Shown piece by piece: positions 8,082 to 30,586 of a stretch of DNA of 52,087 nucleotides. Under the pieces are notes generated by a model. It did no database searches. It saw only the letters and a list, made by a program, of their open reading frames with translations, and was not told the DNA's origin. The DNA lies in sequence record MT446395.1; one strand, 5' to 3'. The stretch is from Escherichia virus TH21. The translations under genes and the position numbers were made by a program. How positions within the stretch are numbered: the first letter of the stretch is position 1; the number at the start of each line of letters is the position of its first letter.

Positions 8082-8100
8082 TTTAGCACGAATTGCTAAA
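8082..8100 (-). promoter_or_regulatory. perfect 19-bp palindrome TTTAGCA-CGAAT-TGCTAAA between a TATAAT box and the tail-fibre RBS
   Basis: on minus strand: TATAAT (8110..8105), palindrome, AGGAG (8072..8068), ATG 8058. Confidence 0.5.
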
Positions 8101-12242: not shown

Positions 12243-12243
12243 A
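12227..12243 (+). promoter_or_regulatory. cassette palindrome TAGCACGAATTGCTAAA overlapping the end of the VRR-NUC gene
   Basis: encodes ..STNC*; hairpin ggtgaggtg..cacctcatc with TATTAT; leader ATCGAAACGAAG. Confidence 0.5.
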
Positions 12244-12308
12244 GACGAATCGGTGAGGTGGTGTATTATCACCTCATCGAAACGAAGTAACCAACCAAGG
12301 AAATTAAA

Positions 12309-13543: not shown

Positions 13544-13557
13544 CACTAATTGCTAAA
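13541..13557 (+). promoter_or_regulatory. cassette palindrome TAGCACTAATTGCTAAA
   Basis: TAG stop overlaps; GC hairpin tacccgccgccgcgcgggta; leader ACGAGACGAGGAA. Confidence 0.5.
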
Positions 13558-13613
13558 CATACCCGCCGCCGCGCGGGTATACTTCTTTCATACCAACGAG
13601 ACGAGGAATCACC

Positions 13614-13847: not shown

Positions 13848-14079
13848 GGTAGGCCGTCAGGCTGTTTGGAATCACTGCAAGGAGGCTGGAATAAGTGATG
13901 ATATTGCGCTTATAGCCAAGTATTTCGACATTAAAGATATATGCGTCATATTCAACGGAAAGATGACGTATATACACGAAAGGCCGCGTAAGCTGATCAG
14001 AGTTCCGGCAACTCCGGTGAAGATTGACTACAAGGCCTGCATTCAAGCAACGAAAGACGCAGCGAGAAGGTACAAATGA
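13780..14079 (+). CDS. hypothetical protein (start uncertain, possibly 13834)
   Basis: 99 aa ORF overlapping previous gene by 68 nt. Confidence 0.3.
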   Translation: MVICQWLTIKPCRGALTFMVTVEVGRQAVWNHCKEAGISDDIALIAKYFDIKDICVIFNGKMTYIHERPRKLIRVPATPVKIDYKACIQATKDAARRYK

Positions 14080-14213
14080 AACCACATGAATTTAGTGTTT
14101 TGGTTAATGAAATAATGAGAACTGTCAATAAATATGGTGGAACTCAGCAGTTGCGTGAGCAGGTGGTTAAAACTCTTTCAAGAAATGGCATTAAGCCGGA
14201 GCACAAGAAATGA
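14076..14213 (+). CDS. hypothetical small protein (45 aa)
   Basis: not in ORF track; ATGA overlaps at both ends. Confidence 0.35.
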   Translation: MKPHEFSVLVNEIMRTVNKYGGTQQLREQVVKTLSRNGIKPEHKK

Positions 14214-15758: not shown

Positions 15759-15932
15759 ATGGTTAAATTATTTTGCGTTAAGAACACATCTAAAACCCTG
15801 CCTTTCACTGTTAACAATCCGTACAGCGCCGAGTATCAAGGTGACGGTAACTACAAGATTTACGGCGACGATATGACGTGGATTTTTGCGCCGCTTGATG
15901 GTGCGCTGGTTGAATTTATTATCGCTGACTAG
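15759..15932 (+). CDS. hypothetical small protein (57 aa)
   Basis: not in ORF track; RBS AGAGGA; followed by strong terminator. Confidence 0.4.
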   Translation: MVKLFCVKNTSKTLPFTVNNPYSAEYQGDGNYKIYGDDMTWIFAPLDGALVEFIIAD

Positions 15933-17724: not shown

Positions 17725-19308
17725 TTACCCCAGCAGTCGCGGATTAATGTAAATTTTATCACCAATCAGGCACGTATAGTTTTTCTCATCCAGCATAGGG
17801 ATCAGATGGTCTTTGATGCGAGTCATTACACCAGCCTGGCCCTCGAATGGCTTAACCTTACGCGCCGCTTCATATAGGGATCGGACACCTACAACGCCTT
17901 TCCCGTTCTTGCCTTGCTTGATCAGGATGTCAATAAGCTTGTTCATCTCCGCATGGTCGCCAGCGTGACCAGCAGCGTTTGCAGATGACAGATAAGTTTT
18001 ACTCAGTTCCTGGAACATAATTACAGCTTCTTGCATTGTATCAAGCTCAATCTCTCTGGACTTCTGCGGACTTCCGCCATTGGGATTGAACCAGTTACGC
18101 ACAGTGTGAAGAACCGCCGCGATCCTGATGGCCTGCTTATCAAACTTACCAAGCGCGCCGCGAAGCATTGTGTGTGAATACTTCCCGCCGTCCGCAAGGT
18201 GAGGTTCCATATCCTGACGCGCACGGTTGAGATATTTCATCGCCGACGTGCTCACTGTCAGGTTGACTTCGTGTTCGCTCATGATCTCATGGACCAGACG
18301 GAAGTAGTCCGCCTTGAGTCCGCCATCAATCGGCTCATATGTTGATTCGCCTTTTTCGTCAACGAATACACGCTCGCCAAGGAATGACTTCTCACGCACA
18401 AGCAAGAAACGTTCTGACACACCGATACCACGCGCACCAGCATTCATGATCGCGTTGATTGTTTCATCCTGTGCAATTACAGAGATGCAACCCATAGCGA
18501 TAAAGCTCATGTTATTGTCTGCGTTCGCACGCGCGATAGATACGTTACCAGCATCCCATGCCTTAAGCACAAGTTCGCTGTTCGTTTTCTTTGAGCCGTC
18601 ACCATAGGTCATGCCTAACAGTGAGTTTACGCTCGTTGCTTCATCCGAGATCACAGAGAAGTTCCCCTGGCGGTTGTTGATTCGCGCCAGACCTTCCGGC
18701 GTGGTGTCGGATACGGGGAATACGATGTCACAAAGGCGTTCCAGTTTTTCTTCCAGTTCTTCTTTTTCCTCAAACAGTGCCGCCATGTCGGACGGTGATT
18801 TTTCCTGCTTCATCTCCTTGGATAGAGCAGATAGTTTAGCCATAATCTTCTTGCGGTCGCGCTTTCGGATCTCGTTGAGTCGTTCAGTCTCTGCGATCAT
18901 CGGGGCCAGCGAAAGTGAGTTAATGGCTGATTTACCTGTCGATGGTGGCTGACTGGTTACGACGTAAAGCGCGGTCGGCTGTTGTGTTCCGTGATACTCA
19001 ACCGTAAAGCGGCCCAGCATGGCGGCTGATATGCATCCGAGGAAATGCATGTAAGCGGACGACTCGGGGAACTGAACTGAACGAGCGGCATTGCTTGACA
19101 GCTTACCAACGACATCATAATCGTTACCAAGTGAGATAACCGGATATTTGTCACCGCCCGAGTCGATTTCTGTTGGTGCTTTCCAGAACGACTGGCTTTG
19201 CCTGTACCCGTTCGCATTGATGGCAACGCGCAGGGGCGGCAGGTTATCGGCGGCGGCCACAGCCATAACCTGATCGATAGACAATTTATCTTCGTTAAAA
19301 TCAAACAT
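17725..19308 (-). CDS. P-loop NTPase, possibly VirE/DUF3987-like primase-associated helicase
   Basis: 527 aa from ATG 19308 (AAGGAG 7 nt upstream); Walker A-like SQPPSTGKS; N- and C-terminal segments recur in 24573..25127. Confidence 0.45.
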   Translation of the reverse strand: MFDFNEDKLSIDQVMAVAAADNLPPLRVAINANGYRQSQSFWKAPTEIDSGGDKYPVISLGNDYDVVGKLSSNAARSVQFPESSAYMHFLGCISAAMLGRFTVEYHGTQQPTALYVVTSQPPSTGKSAINSLSLAPMIAETERLNEIRKRDRKKIMAKLSALSKEMKQEKSPSDMAALFEEKEELEEKLERLCDIVFPVSDTTPEGLARINNRQGNFSVISDEATSVNSLLGMTYGDGSKKTNSELVLKAWDAGNVSIARANADNNMSFIAMGCISVIAQDETINAIMNAGARGIGVSERFLLVREKSFLGERVFVDEKGESTYEPIDGGLKADYFRLVHEIMSEHEVNLTVSTSAMKYLNRARQDMEPHLADGGKYSHTMLRGALGKFDKQAIRIAAVLHTVRNWFNPNGGSPQKSREIELDTMQEAVIMFQELSKTYLSSANAAGHAGDHAEMNKLIDILIKQGKNGKGVVGVRSLYEAARKVKPFEGQAGVMTRIKDHLIPMLDEKNYTCLIGDKIYINPRLLG

Positions 19309-19378
19309 TAAAAAACTCCTTAGTTGGTGCGCTAATGTTAACGCACCTATGGTAAAACCGCTTGCCAAAAAATGCTAC

Positions 19379-19732
19379 TTATTTATACGCCGACTCAAAT
19401 CTGTAAGTGCCGCATACTGTTTCGAATCCGACATCATCCGAGCGGTACAATTGCCAGGCTACGCCGTCGTTGTCGAAGATGTAACCAGCGTTACTACCGA
19501 GTCCTGCGTGCATGTCAACCTGGTAACGTTTGCCTTGAGTGAAGTCTTTTTTAACGGCAGATTTATGATTTACCTTAGTAACGTAAATGGTTTTAGTCTT
19601 GATGTAACGGCCCTTGATATCAAGGTTAACCCACTTGCCATCAACCTTGATTTGCTCTACCTCATCTTTTACGCGAGCTTTCAGAAGGCGGTTGTCGGAG
19701 GTAACGAAGTTTTTGGTGATTGTGGTAGCCAT
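19379..19732 (-). CDS. hypothetical protein
   Basis: 117 aa from ATG 19732 preceded by AAGGAAA and the conserved leader. Confidence 0.45.
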   Translation of the reverse strand: MATTITKNFVTSDNRLLKARVKDEVEQIKVDGKWVNLDIKGRYIKTKTIYVTKVNHKSAVKKDFTQGKRYQVDMHAGLGSNAGYIFDNDGVAWQLYRSDDVGFETVCGTYRFESAYK

Positions 19733-19796
19733 GATTATTTTCCTTTGGTGTGTTTCGTTTCGATGAGATGAATATACAGGAAAAGCCCCGAAGGGC

Positions 19797-19813
19797 TTTA
19801 GCAATTCGTGCTA
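19797..19813 (-). promoter_or_regulatory. cassette palindrome TAGCACGAATTGCTAAA overlapping the stop of the methyltransferase-like gene
   Basis: followed on minus strand by hairpin agccc-ttcg-gggct plus T-run, TATATT, leader ATCGAAACGAAAC. Confidence 0.5.
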
Positions 19814-20494
19814 TTTGGTTAAATGATTTGCCAGGTATACGGCGCGCGCAAATCCACGAGGAGTCAGTGAGCGCAACTGCTTGGTTTTTGCAGACTTCCC
19901 GCCGAGGTACTTCCATCCCCAAAAGAATCCAATGTTAATCGGGCCAGGCTTCTTCACTGGCTCAACGAATCCGTTACCATGCCAGATGCAAGTTTTCTTC
20001 GTGTAGCCGTCGTATTTCGGCATTTTTTCGTGGTACGGAAGATCGTGAGCTTTCATGAGTCCGCCGTATTCATACGGATTGAAGTAGAAGTCAGGCTTAC
20101 GCCACAGGCTTGACAGCTTGCCTACCGGATTCTCGACCATCCAGGGTGCCTGGAAGTGATTTCCGACTTCCTCGACGAGCTTCGCATTAGCCAGGGCGTA
20201 CGCCAGTTCATCATCACTGCGCTCATGCTGTGATCCAGACTGAGAGAACAGCGTGCAATCAGGGAATCCGATAACCATCTGCGCCGGAGGAAGGCCGAGC
20301 AATTCACACTTGGTAATGAAATCCTTGTCAATCCACATGTTGACGTAGTGAATGTTCTCATGCTTCATCTTGATGTGATATTCGCCATGATTGCCGGAGT
20401 CCGCGTTGAAGCAGTAGACGGTGTGACCATCTTCCGCCCATGGGAGGCCAGCGATACCAGAACCGTCGAACAAGCAGTAAATTACCTTTTTCAT
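19811..20494 (-). CDS. C5-cytosine methyltransferase-like protein (short, orphan)
   Basis: 227 aa; motif I-like CLFDGSGIAG, motif IV-like GFPDCTLFSQSG, motif VI-like VENP, in canonical order. Confidence 0.4.
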   Translation of the reverse strand: MKKVIYCLFDGSGIAGLPWAEDGHTVYCFNADSGNHGEYHIKMKHENIHYVNMWIDKDFITKCELLGLPPAQMVIGFPDCTLFSQSGSQHERSDDELAYALANAKLVEEVGNHFQAPWMVENPVGKLSSLWRKPDFYFNPYEYGGLMKAHDLPYHEKMPKYDGYTKKTCIWHGNGFVEPVKKPGPINIGFFWGWKYLGGKSAKTKQLRSLTPRGFARAVYLANHLTK

Positions 20495-20649
20495 TTCTTC
20501 TTAGCCTTCTCAATTGCTTTCTGTGTGATTTCGTAACTGCTTTGCAAGTCTTCAACCTGAGCGCTGGTGCTCCATGGATGCCATCCTTGACCTGAGAGCT
20601 TCGCGATCGTGTCGTTGTCGTAGTAGTTCAAATCGGATGGCTTGAGCAT
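20491..20649 (-). CDS. hypothetical small protein (52 aa)
   Basis: not in ORF track; ATGA overlap with downstream gene and TAATG overlap with upstream gene. Confidence 0.35.
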   Translation of the reverse strand: MLKPSDLNYYDNDTIAKLSGQGWHPWSTSAQVEDLQSSYEITQKAIEKAKKK

Positions 20650-20888
20650 TATTTCACCTCATCAAACGTTGCGATACCAGGGATAAACATTCCGACCTTC
20701 CAGCCTGCGATAGCAATCCATCCAGAATCGTGCTTGTGCGGTCGCTCAGCGCCATTAATAACCCATTCGTTCGGGATTGTCTTACCGTTAATGATTAGCG
20801 CCTCAGCGTCGTATACAGAACCTTTTACGAACGGTGTCAAAACTTTCTTGTCGGTGCTGGTGATTACGTTAGTGCATTTTACTTTCAT
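20649..20888 (-). CDS. hypothetical protein
   Basis: 79 aa. Confidence 0.45.
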   Translation of the reverse strand: MKVKCTNVITSTDKKVLTPFVKGSVYDAEALIINGKTIPNEWVINGAERPHKHDSGWIAIAGWKVGMFIPGIATFDEVK

Positions 20889-20897
20889 GATCTCACC

Positions 20898-21113
20898 TTA
20901 GAACGGGATTCCGTCATCAAATTTTAAGCGGTAGTCGAAATCATCCCCGATTCCGTCTACTGACTGGTTGCTTTCGCTTTCCAGATCCATATCCATAACG
21001 CCCAATGCGTCATCGAGTTCGATGCATCCGTAAGCAACCTTGAGCGCCCACTCTTCATTGAGTCCGGCCTCAAGTGCCGCGCGGTGGCGGCTCCAGAAAT
21101 TATCTTGATGCAC
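20898..21113 (-). CDS. small acidic protein ending in an SSB-like C-terminal tip (KFDDGIPF)
   Basis: 71 aa; GTG start with GGAG 6 nt upstream; C-terminus resembles the DDDIPF tip of SSB. Confidence 0.5.
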   Translation of the reverse strand: MHQDNFWSRHRAALEAGLNEEWALKVAYGCIELDDALGVMDMDLESESNQSVDGIGDDFDYRLKFDDGIPF

Positions 21114-21115
21114 TG

Positions 21116-21340
21116 TTAGCTCCAGGAATTGATGTAAAGTGAGTTATCATTTAACAGGTTGACCATCTCAGCACGGGTAAGGCTACGGATGATTGATCCT
21201 GGATGAGTGCCAACAACGTAGCGGTCGAACTCACGGCGCGTAATAGTGATTTGGCTTACGCCTGCGGCGCGGTCCAGCTTGACGATTGCACGGCCTTTTG
21301 CTTCGATGTGTGCTACTACGTTCTGAGCTTTAACTGACAT
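21116..21340 (-). CDS. hypothetical protein
   Basis: 74 aa; RBS AGAGGAAG; downstream of cassette copy. Confidence 0.45.
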   Translation of the reverse strand: MSVKAQNVVAHIEAKGRAIVKLDRAAGVSQITITRREFDRYVVGTHPGSIIRSLTRAEMVNLLNDNSLYINSWS

Positions 21341-21404
21341 TTTTACTTCCTCTTTGTGTACTTCGTTTCGATGAAATGATTATGCCTCATTCCGTGAGGC
21401 TTCG

Positions 21405-21421
21405 TTTAGCAATTCGTGCTA
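21405..21421 (-). promoter_or_regulatory. cassette palindrome TAGCACGAATTGCTAAA
   Basis: preceded by TAA stop; hairpin gcctca..tgaggc, CATAAT, leader ATCGAAACGAAG. Confidence 0.5.
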
Positions 21422-21422
21422 T

Positions 21423-21854
21423 TTACGGTTTTTTCGGTGGGCGCTGCTTGTGCACGTAAAACGGCGTCGGCGTAATGCAAGGCTGATAACCAGTCAGGAT
21501 ACGATTGCTTGCTTCCGTAGCGTGCGCAACTGCCTCAACCTGTTGAGATGTCGCCACCTGGCTACGGCGCAACAACCGACTTTTGCTCATCCGCTGGTTA
21601 GTGCCGCTTAACTTCATATACTGATAATCCAACGGCTCGAACGCGACACGCTTCTCCATGAACACCTTGCGGCTACTGGCAACGAATACCTTACTGCCTT
21701 TGCGTCCAGCAATGCTGCGAATGGAAGTGTACATTGACTCATGAATTTGAGCCTTGAAGCGCCAGGCTCCGTACGCCCAAATATACATCCGGCCTGATGG
21801 CGTGATGAATCGCGTGGTGCCATCCGTCGCCTTAAAGATGATGCCGTGTCTCAT
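21423..21854 (-). CDS. hypothetical basic protein
   Basis: 143 aa, Arg/Lys-rich. Confidence 0.45.
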   Translation of the reverse strand: MRHGIIFKATDGTTRFITPSGRMYIWAYGAWRFKAQIHESMYTSIRSIAGRKGSKVFVASSRKVFMEKRVAFEPLDYQYMKLSGTNQRMSKSRLLRRSQVATSQQVEAVAHATEASNRILTGYQPCITPTPFYVHKQRPPKKP

Positions 21855-21864
21855 TTGCCTTTCC

Positions 21865-22074
21865 TCAGATTAGTGAAATTTCGACGGTGACTTTCGCCTG
21901 ACCAATTACCCGCGCACCGCCATACAACAACGCGCATTCAATGATGTGCTCATCCATCGCGGCTGTTTGTGATGGCAGACCATCCAACAGGCGGAAGATT
22001 TCGGACCGTGAGTTGTCGCAACTGATCAGATACTCGTTGCCGCTACCGATAAACTGCACAATGTCAAACATCAT
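21865..22074 (-). CDS. hypothetical protein
   Basis: 69 aa from ATG 22074 (GGAG 8 nt upstream); ORF track start 22140 is TTG. Confidence 0.4.
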   Translation of the reverse strand: MMFDIVQFIGSGNEYLISCDNSRSEIFRLLDGLPSQTAAMDEHIIECALLYGGARVIGQAKVTVEISLI

Positions 22075-22250
22075 TTCTGTAGCTCCGTTTCGTAGTAGTC
22101 GTAGGTATTGAACTGATCTCTTGCGTTCATCTTCTCGCAAACCTGCTTTGCCATCTGCTCACTTAGGCACACGCAGTGCACTTGAGTGTCATATTCCGGT
22201 TCGCGTGGCTCAGCCATCACAACGTAGCAATGCATTTTAACAGTGGTCAT
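22071..22250 (-). CDS. hypothetical Cys/His-rich small protein (59 aa), possible zinc binder
   Basis: not in ORF track; HC..HCVC..C pattern; ATGA overlap downstream. Confidence 0.35.
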   Translation of the reverse strand: MTTVKMHCYVVMAEPREPEYDTQVHCVCLSEQMAKQVCEKMNARDQFNTYDYYETELQK

Positions 22251-22252
22251 AA

Positions 22253-22537
22253 TTATTTCTTCCCGTCGAATGTTAAATAGTTCACATGGAATGCAACGAT
22301 TCCATCGTGAGCGATTGTCGTGTGCGGACGAACGATGATGATCACCTTATCCGTTTTCTTGTCACGAAGCACCGCGTCGCCGTGCTCAAACATGTAAACA
22401 GTGCGATCAGCCATCTGCCTCACGCTCTCATTTCTGCAACCGTAGAATCGCTGAACCGCACGAATTACCGCATCATTCTCTTTGGCCTGAACCTCGACCT
22501 GCATACGGTAGGCCATTTGCTGAATATCGTTTTTCAT
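22253..22537 (-). CDS. hypothetical protein
   Basis: 94 aa; preceded by cassette leader. Confidence 0.45.
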   Translation of the reverse strand: MKNDIQQMAYRMQVEVQAKENDAVIRAVQRFYGCRNESVRQMADRTVYMFEHGDAVLRDKKTDKVIIIVRPHTTIAHDGIVAFHVNYLTFDGKK

Positions 22538-22592
22538 CTCTATATCCTTCGTTTCGATGGAGTGAATCTTAGCAAATCACTCCTGATTGGTA

Positions 22593-22609
22593 ATTAGCAA
22601 ATCGTGCTA
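22593..22609 (-). promoter_or_regulatory. cassette palindrome TAGCACGATTTGCTAAT
   Basis: followed by 7-bp-stem hairpin ggagtga..tcactcc and leader ATCGAAACGAAGG. Confidence 0.45.
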
Positions 22610-22610
22610 T

Positions 22611-22937
22611 TTATGCGATGTCGAACTCCGCTGCGTACGCTTCTTTGATACCCGCTTCACGCATGGTGCGCTTGCTGATTTTTCGCGGGTGACGGTACTG
22701 AGCGTTAGGCTTAATCCACCAGAAGCAAGCAGTTTCACGAACGATTTCATAAGCGCTGTAACGAGTGAAAATATCGCGTTCTGCGTCCGGCTGGGATACA
22801 CAGGTCAGGCTCTTAACTTCCGGCTTGATTTCTTCCCAAACGAATGAATCCATACCGTTAACCTTGCAAGCTACCATCACATATTCAACACCGTTTTCGA
22901 TTTTGATGATGTGGTTACCGCGATTTTCGTATTTCAT
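22611..22937 (-). CDS. hypothetical protein
   Basis: 108 aa. Confidence 0.45.
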   Translation of the reverse strand: MKYENRGNHIIKIENGVEYVMVACKVNGMDSFVWEEIKPEVKSLTCVSQPDAERDIFTRYSAYEIVRETACFWWIKPNAQYRHPRKISKRTMREAGIKEAYAAEFDIA

Positions 22938-22997
22938 TTGCTTGCTCTCTGTGTCTCGTTTCGATGAAGTAATAATACCCCATCGTGAGATCTGGCG

Positions 22998-23014
22998 TTT
23001 AGCAATTCGTGCTA
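22998..23014 (-). promoter_or_regulatory. cassette palindrome TAGCACGAATTGCTAAA
   Basis: followed by TATTAT and leader ATCGAAACGAGAC. Confidence 0.5.
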
Positions 23015-23016
23015 TT

Positions 23017-23214
23017 TCAGAATTTAACTTCCTCGACTACCTGGACCATCTCGTATCCAAGGCGGTAACTGTCACCAAGGATTAATCGGCCCATGAACTG
23101 ATCGTTCGTGAAGCTCTCCTTACCCATGGTCCGAAGCGATCCGTGATGGATGATAGTGTCGCCAACCTTCACGTCGTTCTTGTGCGTCAAAACAATTTTG
23201 TTATCCATTATCAA
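23017..23214 (-). CDS. hypothetical protein
   Basis: 65 aa. Confidence 0.4.
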   Translation of the reverse strand: MIMDNKIVLTHKNDVKVGDTIIHHGSLRTMGKESFTNDQFMGRLILGDSYRLGYEMVQVVEEVKF

Positions 23215-23221
23215 GTGCTCC

Positions 23222-23404
23222 TTACATGTGTTTCAGGTAGAAAGCGATTTCACGGATGTTGTCTTCTGGATGAGCCTTCACGACTACCGCGAACATCTTC
23301 TCAACCAGCGCCTTGGTGCTCTCAGGGTTATAACCTTCCTGGACCAGCAGGGCAATAGTGTTTTCGATGGTAACTGGTGAGTTCTTGTTGATGCGCTTAG
23401 CCAT
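23222..23404 (-). CDS. hypothetical protein, first gene of minus-strand accessory operon
   Basis: 60 aa; RBS AAAGGAA; leader ATCGAAACGACAC. Confidence 0.4.
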   Translation of the reverse strand: MAKRINKNSPVTIENTIALLVQEGYNPESTKALVEKMFAVVVKAHPEDNIREIAFYLKHM

Positions 23405-23468
23405 GATGATTTCCTTTAGTGCGTGTCGTTTCGATTAGGTAATAATAGCGAATCACTCCTGATCGGTC

Positions 23469-23485
23469 ATTAGCAAAAAGTGCTA
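23469..23485 (-). promoter_or_regulatory. cassette palindrome TAGCACTTTTTGCTAAT at the head of the minus-strand operon
   Basis: followed by TATTAT and the conserved leader. Confidence 0.45.
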
Positions 23486-23499
23486 TTCGTTCGATTTAT

Positions 23500-23625
23500 G
23501 GATTGTTGCAGCTATTGCAATGATTCACTTCACTATTGCACATATAGCAATATTGCATCGTTTGCAATGATGTTTTCGATTGTTGCGAATTGAGCAATGA
23601 TTCATTGATGGGTGGAATGATGGGG
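23500..23625. repeat. iteron-like cluster of TTGCAATGAT / TTGCA repeats
   Basis: TTGCAATGAT at 23515 and 23562, GCAATGAT at 23594, GGAATGATG at 23614; inverted repeat TATTGC-N7-GCAATA near 23535. Confidence 0.45.
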
Positions 23626-23681
23626 TGAGATCTGATCCCCGATCGCCTGGTAGGATTTTCCCGCCACACGTTTCATCTATT

Positions 23682-23830
23682 TACACGTAACCGAAGTAGC
23701 ACGGTGTAAGCCACACCCATATCGTTACGCGGGTTACGCGCAGCTACGCCCTGACTTACGCCATAAGTCCTTAATATATATATATATCTTCTTTCTATTA
23801 TTATTATTATTATTAATATTATTGTATGTA
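23682..23830. repeat. AT-rich repeat segment paralogous to 2629..2790, with (AT)7 and (TTA)6 microsatellites
   Basis: tacacgtaaccgaagtagcacggtgta vs tacatgtaaccgatgtaactcggtgta; cgcgcagYtacgcc shared; microsatellites in both copies. Confidence 0.55.
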
Positions 23831-24033
23831 AGTCGTGTAACTGGGGTGCTGGAGTTATCTATATGTTTTTTCCTATCAGGGTATATATTTGCTATTTATG
23901 GACGCATTTCGCCAGTACGGGGCCATGACATCAATTTGCCTCGTTACAGCCACGACACCAAACTACATTGAGCTATAGCTGGGCTGTGATACCTTTTCGC
24001 GTAACCACCCCCGAAAGTTACCAAAAATTACAC

Positions 24034-24062
24034 TTGACTACATGTGTAAGTCGGGATACGAT
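24034..24062 (+). promoter_or_regulatory. sigma70-type promoter (TTGACT-N17-TACGAT) for the plus-strand accessory operon
   Basis: hexamers read directly; ATG at 24094 after GAGAGGAG. Confidence 0.5.
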
Positions 24063-24093
24063 TAGCTCAACTTAAACGAGAGGAGTTATAAAG

Positions 24094-24573
24094 ATGAAAG
24101 AGCAAGTAACACTAGGGCAGGTGATTCGTGAGATGGCAAAGGCAGCACTCAAGTCCGAGGATAAGCAATTCAGCGTGCCACTAAGTAAGATTGCAAGCAT
24201 TATCGGAGTCGATGGCGATAACATTCCAAAGCTAAAGAGTTCATACATCTACAACACGACAGCCCGCATGACTGAGCTAAGGGATGTTGGATTGAAAGCG
24301 ACTCACTCCTATGACGACGACGAGGGTGATAGCGAGTTCGGTGAATCAACCCTGGCAGGTGATAGAAGACTGGTTATCAAGCTGGTACCTGGCACGGCGA
24401 ACATTGGAATCAGAAAGAAGACCAATAACGCGATAAAGGAAGAGGCAATCACCGAGTTCAAGGCGAGAATTTCAAAGGTTATGCCAGACATTTCAGAGTA
24501 TGAAGGAGAGGCGCTTGCCGCTGCAATGAAGGCAATTAAAGATTACCGCTCAATCATTGAGGAGATTAAATAA
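24094..24573 (+). CDS. hypothetical protein, first gene of plus-strand accessory operon
   Basis: 159 aa; strong RBS. Confidence 0.5.
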   Translation: MKEQVTLGQVIREMAKAALKSEDKQFSVPLSKIASIIGVDGDNIPKLKSSYIYNTTARMTELRDVGLKATHSYDDDEGDSEFGESTLAGDRRLVIKLVPGTANIGIRKKTNNAIKEEAITEFKARISKVMPDISEYEGEALAAAMKAIKDYRSIIEEIK

Positions 24574-26827: not shown

Positions 26828-27035
26828 AGAAATGGTTAAGATCCGCATTATCAAGTCACCTTATGGCGGCGTAGATAAAAGCAAGCTGCCAGTGGTGGCG
26901 ATGGCCTGGAAATGGGAGGGCGATAACGGAGAGCCATTTTACATGGTTGACGCCGACTTCCTTCCGGCGCTCAGCAAAAAAGGTATGCTTCCTGGCGACT
27001 GGCCCTTTGCAGAAGATGAGGTTGAAGTGCTATGA
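26817..27035 (+). CDS. hypothetical protein
   Basis: 72 aa from ATG 26817 (GGAG 7 nt upstream). Confidence 0.4.
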   Translation: MNNEEMVKIRIIKSPYGGVDKSKLPVVAMAWKWEGDNGEPFYMVDADFLPALSKKGMLPGDWPFAEDEVEVL

Positions 27036-27130
27036 AGTTCAAATTAGTTGACGTGCTGCAATTGCTGTGTATCGGTTTATCGTGGGTGATGCTGTTCCTG
27101 GTGGTAATCTTCCTGGCTGTGGTGAAATAG
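27032..27130 (+). CDS. 32-aa hydrophobic membrane peptide
   Basis: not in ORF track; single predicted TM helix; ATGA overlap; stop TAG is part of the next cassette. Confidence 0.35.
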   Translation: MKFKLVDVLQLLCIGLSWVMLFLVVIFLAVVK

Positions 27131-27467: not shown

Positions 27468-27670
27468 ATGTTTACTGAAAAAGAGTTTGAGCAGTTTTCC
27501 GCCTGGTCAATATGTCAGGCAGCGCTGACCAGATGGATCGCATAAACAGCCGTCTTGAGATGCCAAAGTTCATCGAAGCGGTAGGCCGCAAGGCCTGCGA
27601 TCGCATGTGGCACTTAATCGAGCATTACGGCGTAACACCAGCAACACTTAAATCGGAGCACATGAAATGA
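27468..27670 (+). other. two overlapping small ORFs in different frames (27468..27545 and 27512..27670): possible frameshifted gene or overlapping micro-genes
   Basis: first ORF has RBS AGAGGA; second lacks an RBS and ends in ATGA overlap with the next gene. Confidence 0.3.
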
Positions 27671-28050
27671 AAGTACGTTTACTTAACCCTAGCATCTATG
27701 CCGATCCGAGCTATCGCAAGATTCATCCGAAAGAGACAAACCCGCGCGATCCTGGTTCTTACCCAATCGTTGTAGAGGGGTTCTTTGATGAGTGCAGCCT
27801 GATTATGAAGAAATATGGCTCTGAAATGAACTCAATCAAGGTTGGTGGTGATGAACTGGATCGCGTATTCAAAAGCTATTTCAGCGACGGTCGCCCGATG
27901 GACTCATGCTACGGCAGTGCGGAAGTTCTCGGTTGGTGGAATGAGCCAGGTAAACCGAAAGCATGGGAGCCAGTAGGACCGTTCGATTTCTGGAACAAAT
28001 TAAAGGCATCACGCGAAGTTGGCGAAACTGTAGGGAAGGGTTATTTATGA
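27667..28050 (+). CDS. hypothetical protein
   Basis: 127 aa. Confidence 0.45.
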   Translation: MKVRLLNPSIYADPSYRKIHPKETNPRDPGSYPIVVEGFFDECSLIMKKYGSEMNSIKVGGDELDRVFKSYFSDGRPMDSCYGSAEVLGWWNEPGKPKAWEPVGPFDFWNKLKASREVGETVGKGYL

Positions 28051-28226
28051 TTATTTTATGCATCGTGCTTTACATCCTGGGCGCACTTCCGGTTTATGCA
28101 ATTGCAAAAGACGTTAGAAATATCGATAACAAATGGTACGACATGGTAATCGTTGCTGCTATCTGGCCCCTACCCATTGCTCTAGGAGTGGTTAAGGGCG
28201 TCTACAAAAAGCTGAAGGAGCAATGA
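28047..28226 (+). CDS. small membrane protein (two predicted TM helices)
   Basis: 59 aa from ATG 28047 (ATGA overlap). Confidence 0.4.
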   Translation: MIILCIVLYILGALPVYAIAKDVRNIDNKWYDMVIVAAIWPLPIALGVVKGVYKKLKEQ

Positions 28227-28706: not shown

Positions 28707-29246
28707 ATGAATCAGATGTACACCATGATTAAGCACGAATTGAATACCGCGGAAATCAATGCGCCAGTCTACGTGTTTGATTACGACGGTACGCTGTCGG
28801 ACGGATCGCATCGTTTGCATAAGTTGCCTACAAAGGATTTGCACCTTACTGAGTCATGGTCTGAGTTCAATCGATTGTCAGAGCGTGATGAGCCTATCGA
28901 ATCAACCATTCAGGTAATGAATAGCCTGTACTACTCCGGCGCGTTCATCATCATACTAACCGGGCGCTCAGATGAGGTGTGCGAGATTTCAACTAAATGG
29001 CTTCACGATGCTGGCGCTAAATACAACGTTCTGGTCATGCGCCAGGATGATGACAACCGCAAGGATACGATCATCAAGGAAGAATTTTTACGATACATTG
29101 GCTTGCACCGCATCACCGCAGCGTGGGATGATAGCGTGAGTGTTATAAAGCACTTCCGCAGCTTAGGTATTACCACCTATCAGGTTTGTGATTACGCCGA
29201 TAACAATCGAGAGGATTTAAAATCTCATGGGGTGCATAAGAAGTGA
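28707..29246 (+). CDS. HAD-superfamily phosphatase/nucleotidase-like protein
   Basis: 179 aa; motif I FDYDGTLSDG (DxDGT). Confidence 0.5.
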   Translation: MNQMYTMIKHELNTAEINAPVYVFDYDGTLSDGSHRLHKLPTKDLHLTESWSEFNRLSERDEPIESTIQVMNSLYYSGAFIIILTGRSDEVCEISTKWLHDAGAKYNVLVMRQDDDNRKDTIIKEEFLRYIGLHRITAAWDDSVSVIKHFRSLGITTYQVCDYADNNREDLKSHGVHKK

Positions 29247-29730
29247 TTCAGAGTACCTAAAATTCCTATTCAGTTACAATGACGGGGTGATAACTTGGCG
29301 AAACAAGTCATCACCTCAAAGTAGGATTGTTTTAGGTGAGCGAGCAGGAAGTTTTGATAAGGATGGATACCTGATCGTAAGGGTTAGAAATCAAACATCG
29401 TCGATACATAGGATCGTGTGGGTTTATCATAACGGAGAAATACCAGCCGGATTTGAAATTGACCATGTTGACGGCGATAAACTAAATAACAGGATTGAAA
29501 ACTTAAGACTCACAACAAGATCTGTTAATTGCAGTAATCAGAGAAAGAGAATTGATAACACCAGCGGTGTTTGTGGTGTAACATTCATGAAAGATAGGCT
29601 AAAATACAGGGCGCAAGTCAGAGGTGTAAGGCTTGGTCAATTCGATACTAAAGAAGAAGCCGCCGAGGCTGTTGCTAAGTACAGATCATATTCTGGCGGA
29701 TTCACTGAAAGACACGGTAAGGAGATTTAA
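29227..29730 (+). CDS. HNH homing endonuclease (HNH + AP2-like DNA-binding domain)
   Basis: 167 aa; HNH core IDHVDGDKLNNRIENLR; paralogous to 36891..37373. Confidence 0.65.
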   Translation: MGCIRSDSEYLKFLFSYNDGVITWRNKSSPQSRIVLGERAGSFDKDGYLIVRVRNQTSSIHRIVWVYHNGEIPAGFEIDHVDGDKLNNRIENLRLTTRSVNCSNQRKRIDNTSGVCGVTFMKDRLKYRAQVRGVRLGQFDTKEEAAEAVAKYRSYSGGFTERHGKEI

Positions 29731-29733
29731 AAA

Positions 29734-30354
29734 ATGTCAAAGATTATCATTCTCAACGGTCCAGCTTCGGTTGGTAAAGACACGATTGGCAACGCCCTAG
29801 CAGCAGATTACAACTGCATCCCGACCAGCTTCAAGCGTCCGATGTTTGAGATTGCAGCATCCATCCTTGGGGCCAGGGCTTTTTCAAAGTTCATCACAGC
29901 ATACGACGACCGCGATCAGAAAGAGATGCCTCAGAGCTTCCTTGGTGGCAAGACATGCCGCGAGTTCATGATCTGGATTAGCGAGTCTGTGGTAAAGCCG
30001 CTATTTGGCAACCAGCAATTCGGAAAGCTGATGAGCGAACATATCAAGCTGTGTGACGAAGGATTCTGTTTTGTGTGTACTGATGGCGGCTTCCCTGATG
30101 AAGTGATCAGGCTCGTTGAAGATGGTCACGATGTTACCCTGGTCCGCTTGTTCATGGATGGCAAGACTTTCGCGGGAGATAGCCGTGATTACATCCGCAT
30201 CAAGCAATCGCACTTCCCTGATTACAAGAAATATAACGAGCATGATGTGCATCTGGTAAATGGTGATGTTGATGATGGCGTCCTTAAAGTAGTTCGCGCT
30301 TGCTTGGTTAGTCCTTCAATGGATGATGATTGGGCAGACGATATTCCTTGGTAA
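29734..30354 (+). CDS. deoxynucleoside monophosphate kinase with acidic SSB-tip-like C-terminus
   Basis: 206 aa; P-loop GPASVGKDT; C-terminus DDDWADDIPW. Confidence 0.6.
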   Translation: MSKIIILNGPASVGKDTIGNALAADYNCIPTSFKRPMFEIAASILGARAFSKFITAYDDRDQKEMPQSFLGGKTCREFMIWISESVVKPLFGNQQFGKLMSEHIKLCDEGFCFVCTDGGFPDEVIRLVEDGHDVTLVRLFMDGKTFAGDSRDYIRIKQSHFPDYKKYNEHDVHLVNGDVDDGVLKVVRACLVSPSMDDDWADDIPW

Positions 30355-30427: not shown

Positions 30428-30586
30428 ATGATTACTATCAACCTGTCAGACAAGCAAGCTATCATCCTTAAGCAACTACTGGCGACTCAGACTATGCAGT
30501 GCACAGCCGATGAGTTCTCTGAGATGGTCAAAGAGGTCCGAACTCAGATCAATAATCAACAATTCGACGAAAACGAAGGGGAATAA
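30428..30586 (+). CDS. hypothetical small protein (52 aa)
   Basis: not in ORF track; RBS GAGAGGAAAG. Confidence 0.4.
   Translation: MITINLSDKQAIILKQLLATQTMQCTADEFSEMVKEVRTQINNQQFDENEGE

Follow-up and report, generated by a model that had tools for sequence, protein, structure and literature searches.

Six micro-open reading frames (micro-ORFs) of Escherichia virus TH21 (sequence record MT446395.1, analysed over its whole length of 52,087 nucleotides (nt) and called the window below) are, on comparative sequence evidence, real and conserved protein-coding genes. Two of them lie on the minus strand, within an accessory-gene block at 19379..23404 with 12 junctions, and four on the plus strand (Table 1). 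We consider it very probable that they are ordinary small genes of the phage's non-structural (early/accessory) regions, arranged in short polycistronic units that each begin with an intergenic repeat module and whose genes are tiled by coupled junctions. A first-pass annotation, made from the letters and a list of longer ORFs, had singled out the six frames, and all six are present at the coordinates in Table 1 with exact lengths and sequences. Its reading of these short ORFs as genuine genes in a tightly packed array is supported by their conservation and by a frame-specific excess of synonymous changes; its description of them as absent from the ORF track is true of that track, where it reflects a length cutoff only, and public protein collections already hold the exact sequences of five of the six proteins, the product of 20491..20649 being present in them.

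The region 19300-24100 was matched in 95 phage records, nearly all of them from T1-like siphoviruses (Drexlerviridae) of Escherichia or Shigella. Escherichia virus TH30 (93% identity), vB_EcoM_50EP, GaoY1-9D, CJ19 and P817 match best, several of these being classed as Nouzillyvirus; judged by sequence similarity, the window is essentially one T1-like coliphage genome of the Drexlerviridae, near Nouzillyvirus. No Rfam family or tRNA was found anywhere in the window. Selection on the micro-ORFs was tested with pairwise Nei-Gojobori ratios of non-synonymous to synonymous substitution (dN/dS) against relatives, and by comparing unique substitution events with a random-mutation expectation. Across the five testable micro-ORFs, dN/dS ranged from 0.04 to 0.46 and synonymous changes were in excess in the proposed frame only (p = 0.003 to 3e-10), with no such excess in the other two frames, where stop-creating changes accumulate. 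In particular, dN/dS was 0.05-0.07 for the minus-strand gene of 52 amino acids (aa) (p = 2e-7), 0.12-0.29 for the 59-aa gene (p = 1e-5), 0.04-0.10 for the 57-aa gene (p = 3e-10) and 0.06-0.17 for the plus-strand 52-aa gene at 30428..30586 (p = 3e-5). Stop-creating changes were absent from four of the five proposed frames, with a single one in 30428..30586. Moreover, lengths and junctions are kept across relatives at 75-98% amino-acid identity, and every micro-ORF is either annotated in at least one GenBank relative or a member of a PHROG or Pfam family; annotated coding sequences (CDSs) homologous to the micro-ORFs occur in CJ19, RobRod40, ETEP102, PH1062, GaoY1-9D and ES. Conservation in related genomes, whose absence the first-pass annotation had named as grounds for dropping the genes, was thus found for all six.

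Table 1. Positions and contexts of the micro-genes, their neighbours, the transcription units and the repeat modules in the window.
Feature	Position	Strand	Context
45-aa micro-gene	14076..14213	+	ORF; ATGA junctions on both sides
57-aa micro-gene	15759..15932	+	first gene after a repeat module; no neighbour overlap
Repeat module	19733..19814	-	17-mer, terminator-like hairpin, TATATT, CATCGAAACGA leader
DNA methyltransferase gene, 227 aa	19811..20494	-	phrog_757, E = 9e-80; ATGA-joined to the 52-aa gene
52-aa micro-gene	20491..20649	-	ORF; TAATG upstream, ATGA downstream
Three small genes (74, 71, 79 aa)	20649..21340	-	2-nt and 9-nt gaps; phrog_4344, phrog_9085, phrog_4448, all full length
Repeat module	21341..21422	-	divides the unit of the 59-aa gene from that of the 52-aa gene
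69-aa and 143-aa genes	21423..22074	-	downstream of the 59-aa gene: ATGA, then a 10-nt gap
59-aa Cys-containing micro-gene	22071..22250	-	ORF; 2-nt gap upstream, ATGA downstream
94-aa gene	22253..22537	-	between module leader and 59-aa gene; in this phage, TH30 and TH27 only
Repeat module	22538..22610	-	intergenic
Genes of units 1-2 (60, 63, then 108 aa)	22611..23404	-	phrog_7717/DUF7421, phrog_3623, phrog_29431
Repeat module	22938..23015	-	intergenic
Repeat module	23405..23486	-	first module of the minus-strand block
32-aa hydrophobic single-helix peptide gene	27032..27130	+	ATGA upstream; TAG stop inside the 17-mer of the next module
Additional 52-aa micro-gene	27512..27670	+	gene call; ATGA downstream; dN/dS 0.09 against TH27
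Additional 59-aa micro-gene	28047..28226	+	gene call; ATGA on both sides; dN/dS 0.14-0.31
Second 52-aa micro-gene	30428..30586	+	first gene after a repeat module; 2-nt gap to next gene
Unit 1		-	60 aa + 63 aa
Unit 2		-	108 aa
Unit 3		-	94 + 59 + 69 + 143 aa
Unit 4		-	74 + 71 + 79 + 52 aa + methyltransferase
Unit 5		-	117 aa
17-mer starts	2606-, 4094+, 12226+, 13540+, 15687+, 19798-, 21406-, 22594-, 22999-, 23470-, 25339+, 27127+, 30355+		sign gives the strand
Example spacers with hairpins	12243-12284(+), 13557-13598(+), 19756-19797(-), 21364-21405(-)		

A gene call whose codon model was trained on the window's 22 longest ORFs, combined with start-codon and ribosome binding site (RBS) scores, yields 86 credible genes; all six micro-ORFs are among them, each with a Shine-Dalgarno (SD)-like motif. 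Small genes are common in this call (9 genes of 60 aa or fewer and 39 below 100 aa), and it adds two micro-genes that the earlier list did not hold (27512..27670 and 28047..28226), neither of which matches a PHROG or Pfam family. One further candidate, a hidden gene at 23496..23669 on the minus strand, was discarded for its negative coding score and lack of an RBS.

ATGA and TAATG junctions, in which a stop codon and the next start codon share bases, are a well-known signature of translational coupling. Of the 79 same-strand junctions in the gene call, 32 (41%) overlap in some way: 18 by the 4-nt ATGA, 4 by the 1-nt TAATG and 10 by other lengths; the remainder have gaps of up to 15 nt (14 junctions), 16-60 nt (7) or more than 60 nt (26). 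The pattern is real, non-random and selected, because an A precedes the TGA stop in 20 of 30 cases (binomial p = 1.2e-7 against a third-position A frequency of 21%) and the ATG at those ATGA stops opens at least 30 codons in 18 of 20, as compared to 43% of other ATGA tetramers. Further, TAATG occurs at 7 of 45 TAA stops (p = 0.03), and most downstream genes keep an SD-like motif. The first-pass annotation had tied such overlaps to the accessory genes; they are not specific to them, as shared-codon junctions are found at 22 of the 79 same-strand junctions genome-wide, including terminase (32688/33221) and tail genes (47017/47760).

Within the minus-strand block, 3 of the 12 junctions share codons, 5 have gaps of 2-13 nt and 4 have gaps of 73-82 nt, each of the latter holding a repeat module. 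All three codon-sharing junctions involve the two hidden ORFs. In particular, the 52-aa gene shares 1 base with the stop codon of the 79-aa gene (20649..20888) and the 4 bases ATGA with the methyltransferase gene, while the 59-aa gene begins 2 nt after the stop codon of the 94-aa gene (TAAttATG) and shares ATGA with the 69-aa gene, which starts at the ATG at 22074. The proposal that consecutive minus-strand genes share start and stop codons throughout therefore holds for three junctions and gives way to gaps at the other nine, and the exact tiling proposed for the two hidden ORFs is found on both sides of the 52-aa gene and downstream of the 59-aa gene, with the 2-nt gap upstream of the latter. 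The same pattern had been ascribed to the plus-strand ORFs. It is present on both sides of the 45-aa gene and upstream of the 32-aa gene; the 57-aa gene and the plus-strand 52-aa gene overlap neither neighbour, and instead start 71-73 nt after the previous gene, behind a module and with their own SD sequence.

The first-pass annotation had treated the minus-strand genes as one tiled operon. They form five short units instead, which are split by modules of the form ATAGCAC...TTGCTAA / stem-loop / TATAnT / CATCGAAACGA. Each module runs from the 17-mer ATAGCACGAATTGCTAA, in or against which the upstream gene stops, through a spacer, the TATAnT hexamer, the CATCGAAACGA leader and the SD sequence to the ATG. 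The 17-mer has 15 matches in the window with at most 3 mismatches (0.19 expected), co-oriented with the genes, and 13 of these 15 lie 68-85 nt ahead of a gene start; the leader occurs 9 times (1.3 expected). All module copies are intergenic and fall in the non-structural half of the genome. TTGCTA lies 22 nt from TATAnT in 29 and 23 nt in 8 of the 43 copies found in the window and in TH30, TH27 and ETEP102, and the upstream gene takes its stop codon from the TAG of ATAGCAC in 5 of 13 copies. Spacer hairpins are more stable than shuffled sequences in 10 of 13 modules (z < -1.5; mean z = -3.0), and their sequences vary between modules while the pairing is kept between orthologs: orthologous module hairpins differ by 4 compensatory, 6 one-sided pair-preserving and 3 pair-breaking changes, with 32 changes in unpaired positions.

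Each unit starts with a family-wide module and ends at the next one, the last stop codon often lying in or against the next 17-mer. These features suggest a mechanism in which the module hairpin would end transcription units, and the -10-like hexamer with an upstream element would start them. Inside a unit, genes are packed by 4-nt (ATGA) overlaps, 1-nt (TAATG) overlaps or gaps of 2-13 nt, so that a ribosome terminating on one gene could re-initiate on the next, potentially coordinating the expression of each mini-operon. Translational coupling by termination-reinitiation is proposed here by analogy with established knowledge of -4 and -1 overlaps. As for the modules, sigma-70 pairs are not enriched, and we infer putative promoter and terminator activity from their geometry. 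The 22-23-nt spacing is too long for a sigma-70 -35/-10 pair (16-18 nt), and with such spacing the 17-mer would span about -50 to -34, as a class-II activator site or an UP-type element does. In about half of the modules the hexamer lies within the hairpin, and in the others the hairpin comes before it, in a terminator-like arrangement, so that a simple terminator-then-promoter model does not explain the layout.

The same block could alternatively be a single operon with one promoter, in which the modules would be processing or stability hairpins acting at the RNA level only. Only some module hairpins resemble strong intrinsic terminators, a strict scan of the block finds no enrichment of such terminators and none on the minus strand, sigma-70-type -35/-10 pairs are not enriched, and the compensatory changes in the hairpins fit an RNA-level function. 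However, every module carries a conserved TAnnnT hexamer at a fixed 22-23 nt from TTGCTA, followed by a conserved leader, and such a fixed geometry makes little sense for a pure RNA element. The modules are also always oriented with the genes, about 77 nt ahead of the start codon, and the literature on T1 and TLS describes transcription modules flanked by terminators (PMC11447400). We judge a single operon to be unlikely, and keep the division into five module-headed units.

Two other identities considered for the 17-mer were rejected. One was a sigma-54 promoter (TGGCAC-N5-TTGC), but by inspection the spacing is N3, and most copies have AG in place of GG. The other, a palindromic site or RNA hairpin (TAGCA-N5-TGCTA), is weak: changes in the arms are uncompensated (TTGGTAA, TAGCTAA, TTGTTAA), and the C required for pairing is not conserved in the TLS consensus. 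At 8083-8099 on the plus strand, between two minus-strand genes, lies an orphan copy that is a perfect palindrome (TTAGCACGAATTGCTAA) and is kept in TH30, TH27 and ETEP102; it is followed by a strong terminator-like hairpin (AAAAACCCGCcgtaGCGGGTAA) and not by the usual -10 and leader.

The minus-strand 52-aa protein belongs to phrog_4548 (E = 2.2e-25, with residues 1-52 on profile positions 1-50 of 53), and translated searches find it in 130 phage records, down to 46% identity, nearly always under an annotated 'hypothetical protein' CDS (for example, CJ19_069 and ETEP102_76). Its ATGA-joined neighbour, the DNA methyltransferase gene, is the only gene of the block with an assignable function. 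An obligatory functional link between the two was rejected, because P817 and TH27 both retain a member of the 52-aa family and both lack the methyltransferase gene.

The 59-aa gene is found in 6 phage records and is annotated in RobRod40 and CJ19. In P817 (L001, 3001-3177) it was left unannotated in GenBank. In CJ19 (L002, 3001-3204) it is a 67-aa read-through variant, a deletion into the next gene having removed the stop codon and the ATGA junction, and it carries the spurious name 'coiled-coil and C2 domain-containing protein 1-like isoform X2'. The family is narrow. At 90% identity it comprises 19 clusters, and a profile search of 1.84 billion representatives returned only 4 clusters at 50% identity, which gave no functional lead. 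The match to phrog_26486 is weak (E = 8e-5), and that to PF24024 (DUF7336) scores 17.6 bits (E = 0.0036), below the cutoff of 25. Two distant homologs sit in tiled arrays with differing neighbours, one on a T1-like contig as the first gene after the divergent region, ATGA-joined to the next gene, and the other adjoining an AAA_5 ATPase, so that the family has no conserved partner gene. In P817, CJ19, RobRod40 and ETEP102, which lack the 94-aa gene, the 59-aa gene stands directly after the CATCGAAACGA leader.

The first-pass annotation had noted an HC..HCVC..C pattern in the 59-aa protein, and the pattern is indeed present (H7-C8 ... H25-C26-V-C28 ... C38). It had gone on to suggest zinc binding, which the variable ligand positions and a predicted fold without a zinc-finger match do not bear out. 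The suggestion, that the protein binds zinc in the manner of a zinc finger or zinc ribbon through these residues, draws on the presence of 4 Cys and 2 His within 59 residues, on the retention of C26, C28 and C38 in all four 50%-identity clusters, down to 38% identity, and on C8 and H25 being kept in most members. Against it stands an alignment with 19 close homologs and 3 distant ones. Most homologs have Tyr in place of H7, and the distant P0021 has Arg in place of H25; C8 is Phe in P0011 and Val in the distant P0022, C26 is Tyr in P0019 and C28 is Phe in P0008, and such hydrophobic replacements are typical of core rather than ligand positions. C26, C28 and C38 are invariant in a seven-sequence alignment that includes distant members, and only C38 is so across every sequence examined; the protein has no four invariant Cys/His ligands and no CxxC or CxxH knuckle.

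An AlphaFold2 model built from the 19-sequence alignment has a mean predicted local distance difference test (pLDDT) score of 79.5 and a compact beta-beta-alpha-beta arrangement, with predicted strands at residues 6-15, 24-29 and 48-57 and a helix at 31-44. In the model, C26 and C28 share one strand and C38 lies on the helix face with the conserved A34 and M41, which suggests that the three cysteines pack in a hydrophobic core between sheet and helix. A Foldseek search of this model against the PDB gave a best match of E = 0.57, thus none below 0.5, with no zinc or metal-binding fold among the matches, and in BFVD it resembles many unrelated and uncharacterized small phage proteins of about 55 aa (template modelling (TM) score about 0.7). 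The 59-aa protein is like small zinc-ribbon and zinc-finger phage proteins in its size and its several Cys and His residues, and differs from them in lacking paired CxxC knuckles and invariant ligands and in its predicted fold, which is not a zinc ribbon. Zinc binding was accordingly dropped as the main explanation after the alignment, fold prediction and PDB and BFVD searches, and we regard it as improbable; our best guess, from the predicted model, is a small soluble beta-beta-alpha-beta protein.

Three of the micro-proteins have full-length, above-threshold family matches: the minus-strand 52-aa protein to phrog_4548, the 57-aa protein to PF23896 (DUF7244; 104.5 bits against a cutoff of 27, and phrog_4788 at E = 1e-34) and the plus-strand 52-aa protein to PF23805 (DUF7180; 46.2 bits against a cutoff of 27, and phrog_16063 at E = 4e-24). 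The 57-aa gene is annotated in a relative as ETEP102_66 and the plus-strand 52-aa gene as ETEP102_15 and CJ19_046. In contrast, the 59-, 45- and 32-aa proteins show weak family matches or none. The 32-aa peptide matches no PHROG or Pfam family, and annotated homologs of equal length (32 aa) with the same ATGA overlap occur in PH1062, CJ19_052 and GaoY1-9D. Its gene has accumulated 17 synonymous, 16 non-synonymous and no stop-creating changes, the synonymous excess again being limited to the proposed frame. The segment MKFKLVDVLQLL is invariant, and every replacement is from one hydrophobic residue to another, which fits a single-pass membrane helix; a single-pass membrane peptide is our best guess for this product.

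The 45-aa gene differs from the others in its distribution. It is missing from TH30, TH27 and ETEP102, the full-length relatives used for comparing insertions, deletions and breakpoints, and in those genomes its two neighbours share one ATGA (or GTGA) junction. The insert that carries it is flanked by a 7-nt direct repeat, aaATGAa: the TH30 site reads gatataaATGAacttacc, and the window reads ggtacaaATGAaacc...[45-aa gene]...caagaaATGAacttacc. The gene is a scarless single-gene insertion or deletion relative to these close relatives. Homologs occur in 54 diverse phage records, including Proteus, Erwinia (T4-like) and Cronobacter phages and P1, where the match is in frame with pmgU; the product has several weak PHROG matches.

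Some micro-ORFs, and this one especially, might be fragments of larger genes, that is, decaying pseudogenes. The alignments of the 45-aa product cover positions 52-94 of phrog_12031 (99 positions in all), 52-95 of phrog_21459 (150 positions) and residues ~15-58 of P1 PmgU (111 aa), and the 67-aa variant in CJ19 shows that the 59-aa gene can lose its stop codon and ATGA junction. However, stand-alone versions of 46-48 aa exist, namely phrog_38634 (46 positions) and an annotated 48-aa homolog (WNO47623) that phage ES, another member of the Drexlerviridae, carries in the same genomic place. The 45-aa ORF also begins at an ATG of its own with an SD-like motif and is joined to the genes on either side by exact ATGA junctions, its upstream neighbour (81 aa) is a full-length member of phrog_2817, and other micro-ORFs match full-length families of their own size. 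Gene fragments are therefore a very unlikely origin for the micro-ORFs.

Several observations weigh against the account of the micro-ORFs as small genes in module-headed, coupled units. No function is assignable to any of the small proteins, and scans of nine micro-proteins against NCBIfam and PADLOC gave nothing meaningful. The searchable literature on T1-like phages holds no ribosome profiling, proteomics or transcription-start map that would serve as direct evidence of expression. The 32-aa ORF has the weakest statistics (dN/dS 0.20-0.46, p = 0.003, a coding score of 0.09 per codon) and is uncalled for this phage in the public collection, and the 45-aa gene, which the three nearest full genomes lack, is without a close homolog from which dN/dS could be calculated. 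For the modules, a scan of the block for the canonical sigma-70 consensus gave 7 sites against 8.0 expected.

That the micro-ORFs are merely untranslated chance frames in intergenic spacers, as their short lengths (32-59 aa), the low score and missing call of the 32-aa ORF and the omission of the 59-aa ORF by the P817 annotators might suggest, is extremely unlikely and was rejected because of the frame-specific synonymous excess with stop-creating changes concentrated in the other two frames, the dN/dS values well under 1, the preserved lengths and junctions and the full-length families of three of them, to which may be added that the exact bridging of two real genes from TAATG to ATGA would arise by chance with a probability of ~1e-3 or less on a rough estimate.

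Gene content between modules differs among relatives. When the window is compared with the three full genomes, 23 of 86 breakpoints lie no more than 10 nt from the start or stop of a gene (5.8% expected; p = 5e-10), and 8 of 86 fall in modules (~2.7 expected), or, by genome, 4 of 26, 3 of 22 and 1 of 38 (~0.8, 0.7 and 1.2 expected). Modules are therefore unlikely to be the main mosaic breakpoints, their enrichment being weak and most breakpoints lying at ordinary gene boundaries; on these alignments, the distribution is the classical one of mosaic phage genomes, with breaks at gene boundaries. At 29227-29730, an HNH_3 endonuclease gene of 167 aa (72.5 bits) lies between a PNKP-phosphatase-like gene (28707..29246), which it overlaps by 20 nt, and the gene at 29734..30354. 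It is missing from all three full-length relatives and is thus probably a free-standing homing endonuclease insertion.

Other parts of the block and its surroundings also vary unevenly. No PHROG or Pfam family was found for the 69-aa and 143-aa genes. The 143-aa gene (21423-21854) has an unusually low codon score of 0.08 per codon, diverges fast, with 55-70% identity among relatives that are more than 90% identical in the adjoining genes, and appears frameshifted in P817, where it is matched as two pieces in different frames. Upstream of the first minus-strand module, the non-coding stretch 23423-23673 is 91-97% identical in TH30, ETEP102, CJ19 and P817, more conserved than the adjacent genes, and contains three degenerate 32-nt direct repeats (TTGTTGC..TTGCAATGAT) at 23496-23604; it may be an operator or iteron region of a divergent early control region. 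The rest of the 690-nt divergent intergenic region (23674-24093) is AT-rich, with a (TAT)9 microsatellite at 23796-23823 and (TA)n runs, and has no alignment to TH30 or ETEP102.

The six micro-ORFs and their coupling architecture are textbook phage genomics and are already catalogued in PHROGs, Pfam DUFs and GenBank annotations, and the practical value of the micro-ORF result is modest. A 60-aa cutoff on ORF length conceals about one in ten of the phage's genes (9 of 86 have no more than 60 aa), and small genes that such a cutoff misses can be recovered reliably by their junction tiling. Our best guess is that the small proteins are host-takeover or accessory factors, which makes them candidates for host-takeover or anti-defence screens, a status that they share with thousands of other small genes of phages (review PMC11323111). 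Of greater interest in this region than the micro-ORFs is the known but unexplained ATAGCAC repeat module that delimits their transcription units.

Huber et al. (2019; PMC6728339) found -4 and -1 overlaps to be the commonest classes in prokaryotes, with ~15% of gene pairs overlapping in most groups and 13 of 14 tested overlapping pairs strictly coupled. The junctions described here are alike in sharing 4 nt or 1 nt, in the 4-nt class being the commonest and in usually having the SD-like motif inside the upstream gene. They differ in their density (41% against ~15%), which is attributed to the compact phage genome, and in that coupling here is putative.

The modules contain a repeat that has been described in phage TLS, where 18 intergenic copies of the 21-nt aaATAGCACnnnTTGnTAAAA lie ~76 nt upstream of start codons; the repeat also occurs in T1, Rtp and Rogue1, and its function was listed as open, with a stoperator, an enhancer site or an UP element as the options (PMC11447400, 2024). 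No other paper in the searchable literature mentions the motif. The copies in the window have the same consensus, the same orientation with transcription, a similar start-codon distance (68-85 nt) and the same intergenic, non-structural positions. Beyond the TLS description, they show the fixed 22-23-nt spacing to TATAnT, the conserved CATCGAAACGA leader, a structurally conserved spacer stem-loop and a TAG within the repeat that often serves as the stop codon of the preceding gene.

The closest described analogue of the modules is the promoter early stem-loop (PeSL), a composite terminator/promoter stem-loop cassette that flanks small ORFs in the hyperplastic regions of T4-type phages (PMC2839356, PMC4122927). 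What may be left as mildly novel is that ATGA junctions and ATAGCAC modules act jointly as standardised connectors for the shuffling of accessory genes in T1-like phages. The ATGA junction (often aaATGAa) would be a scarless plug-in and plug-out point, with the 45-aa gene as its example, and the ATAGCAC/stem-loop/TATAnT/CATCGAAACGA module would be a portable unit boundary that supplies the stop codon, a terminator, a non-canonical (possibly activator-dependent) promoter and the leader. We hold this reading to be doubtful; if true, it would provide a T1-family counterpart of the T4 PeSL and a handle on the function of the 21-nt repeat. Overall, the two systems are alike in their arrays of small genes punctuated by composite promoter/stem-loop motifs and in their variable gene content, an analogy of architecture only, as the sequence motif and the phage family of the T4-type PeSL are unrelated to those of the T1-like modules.

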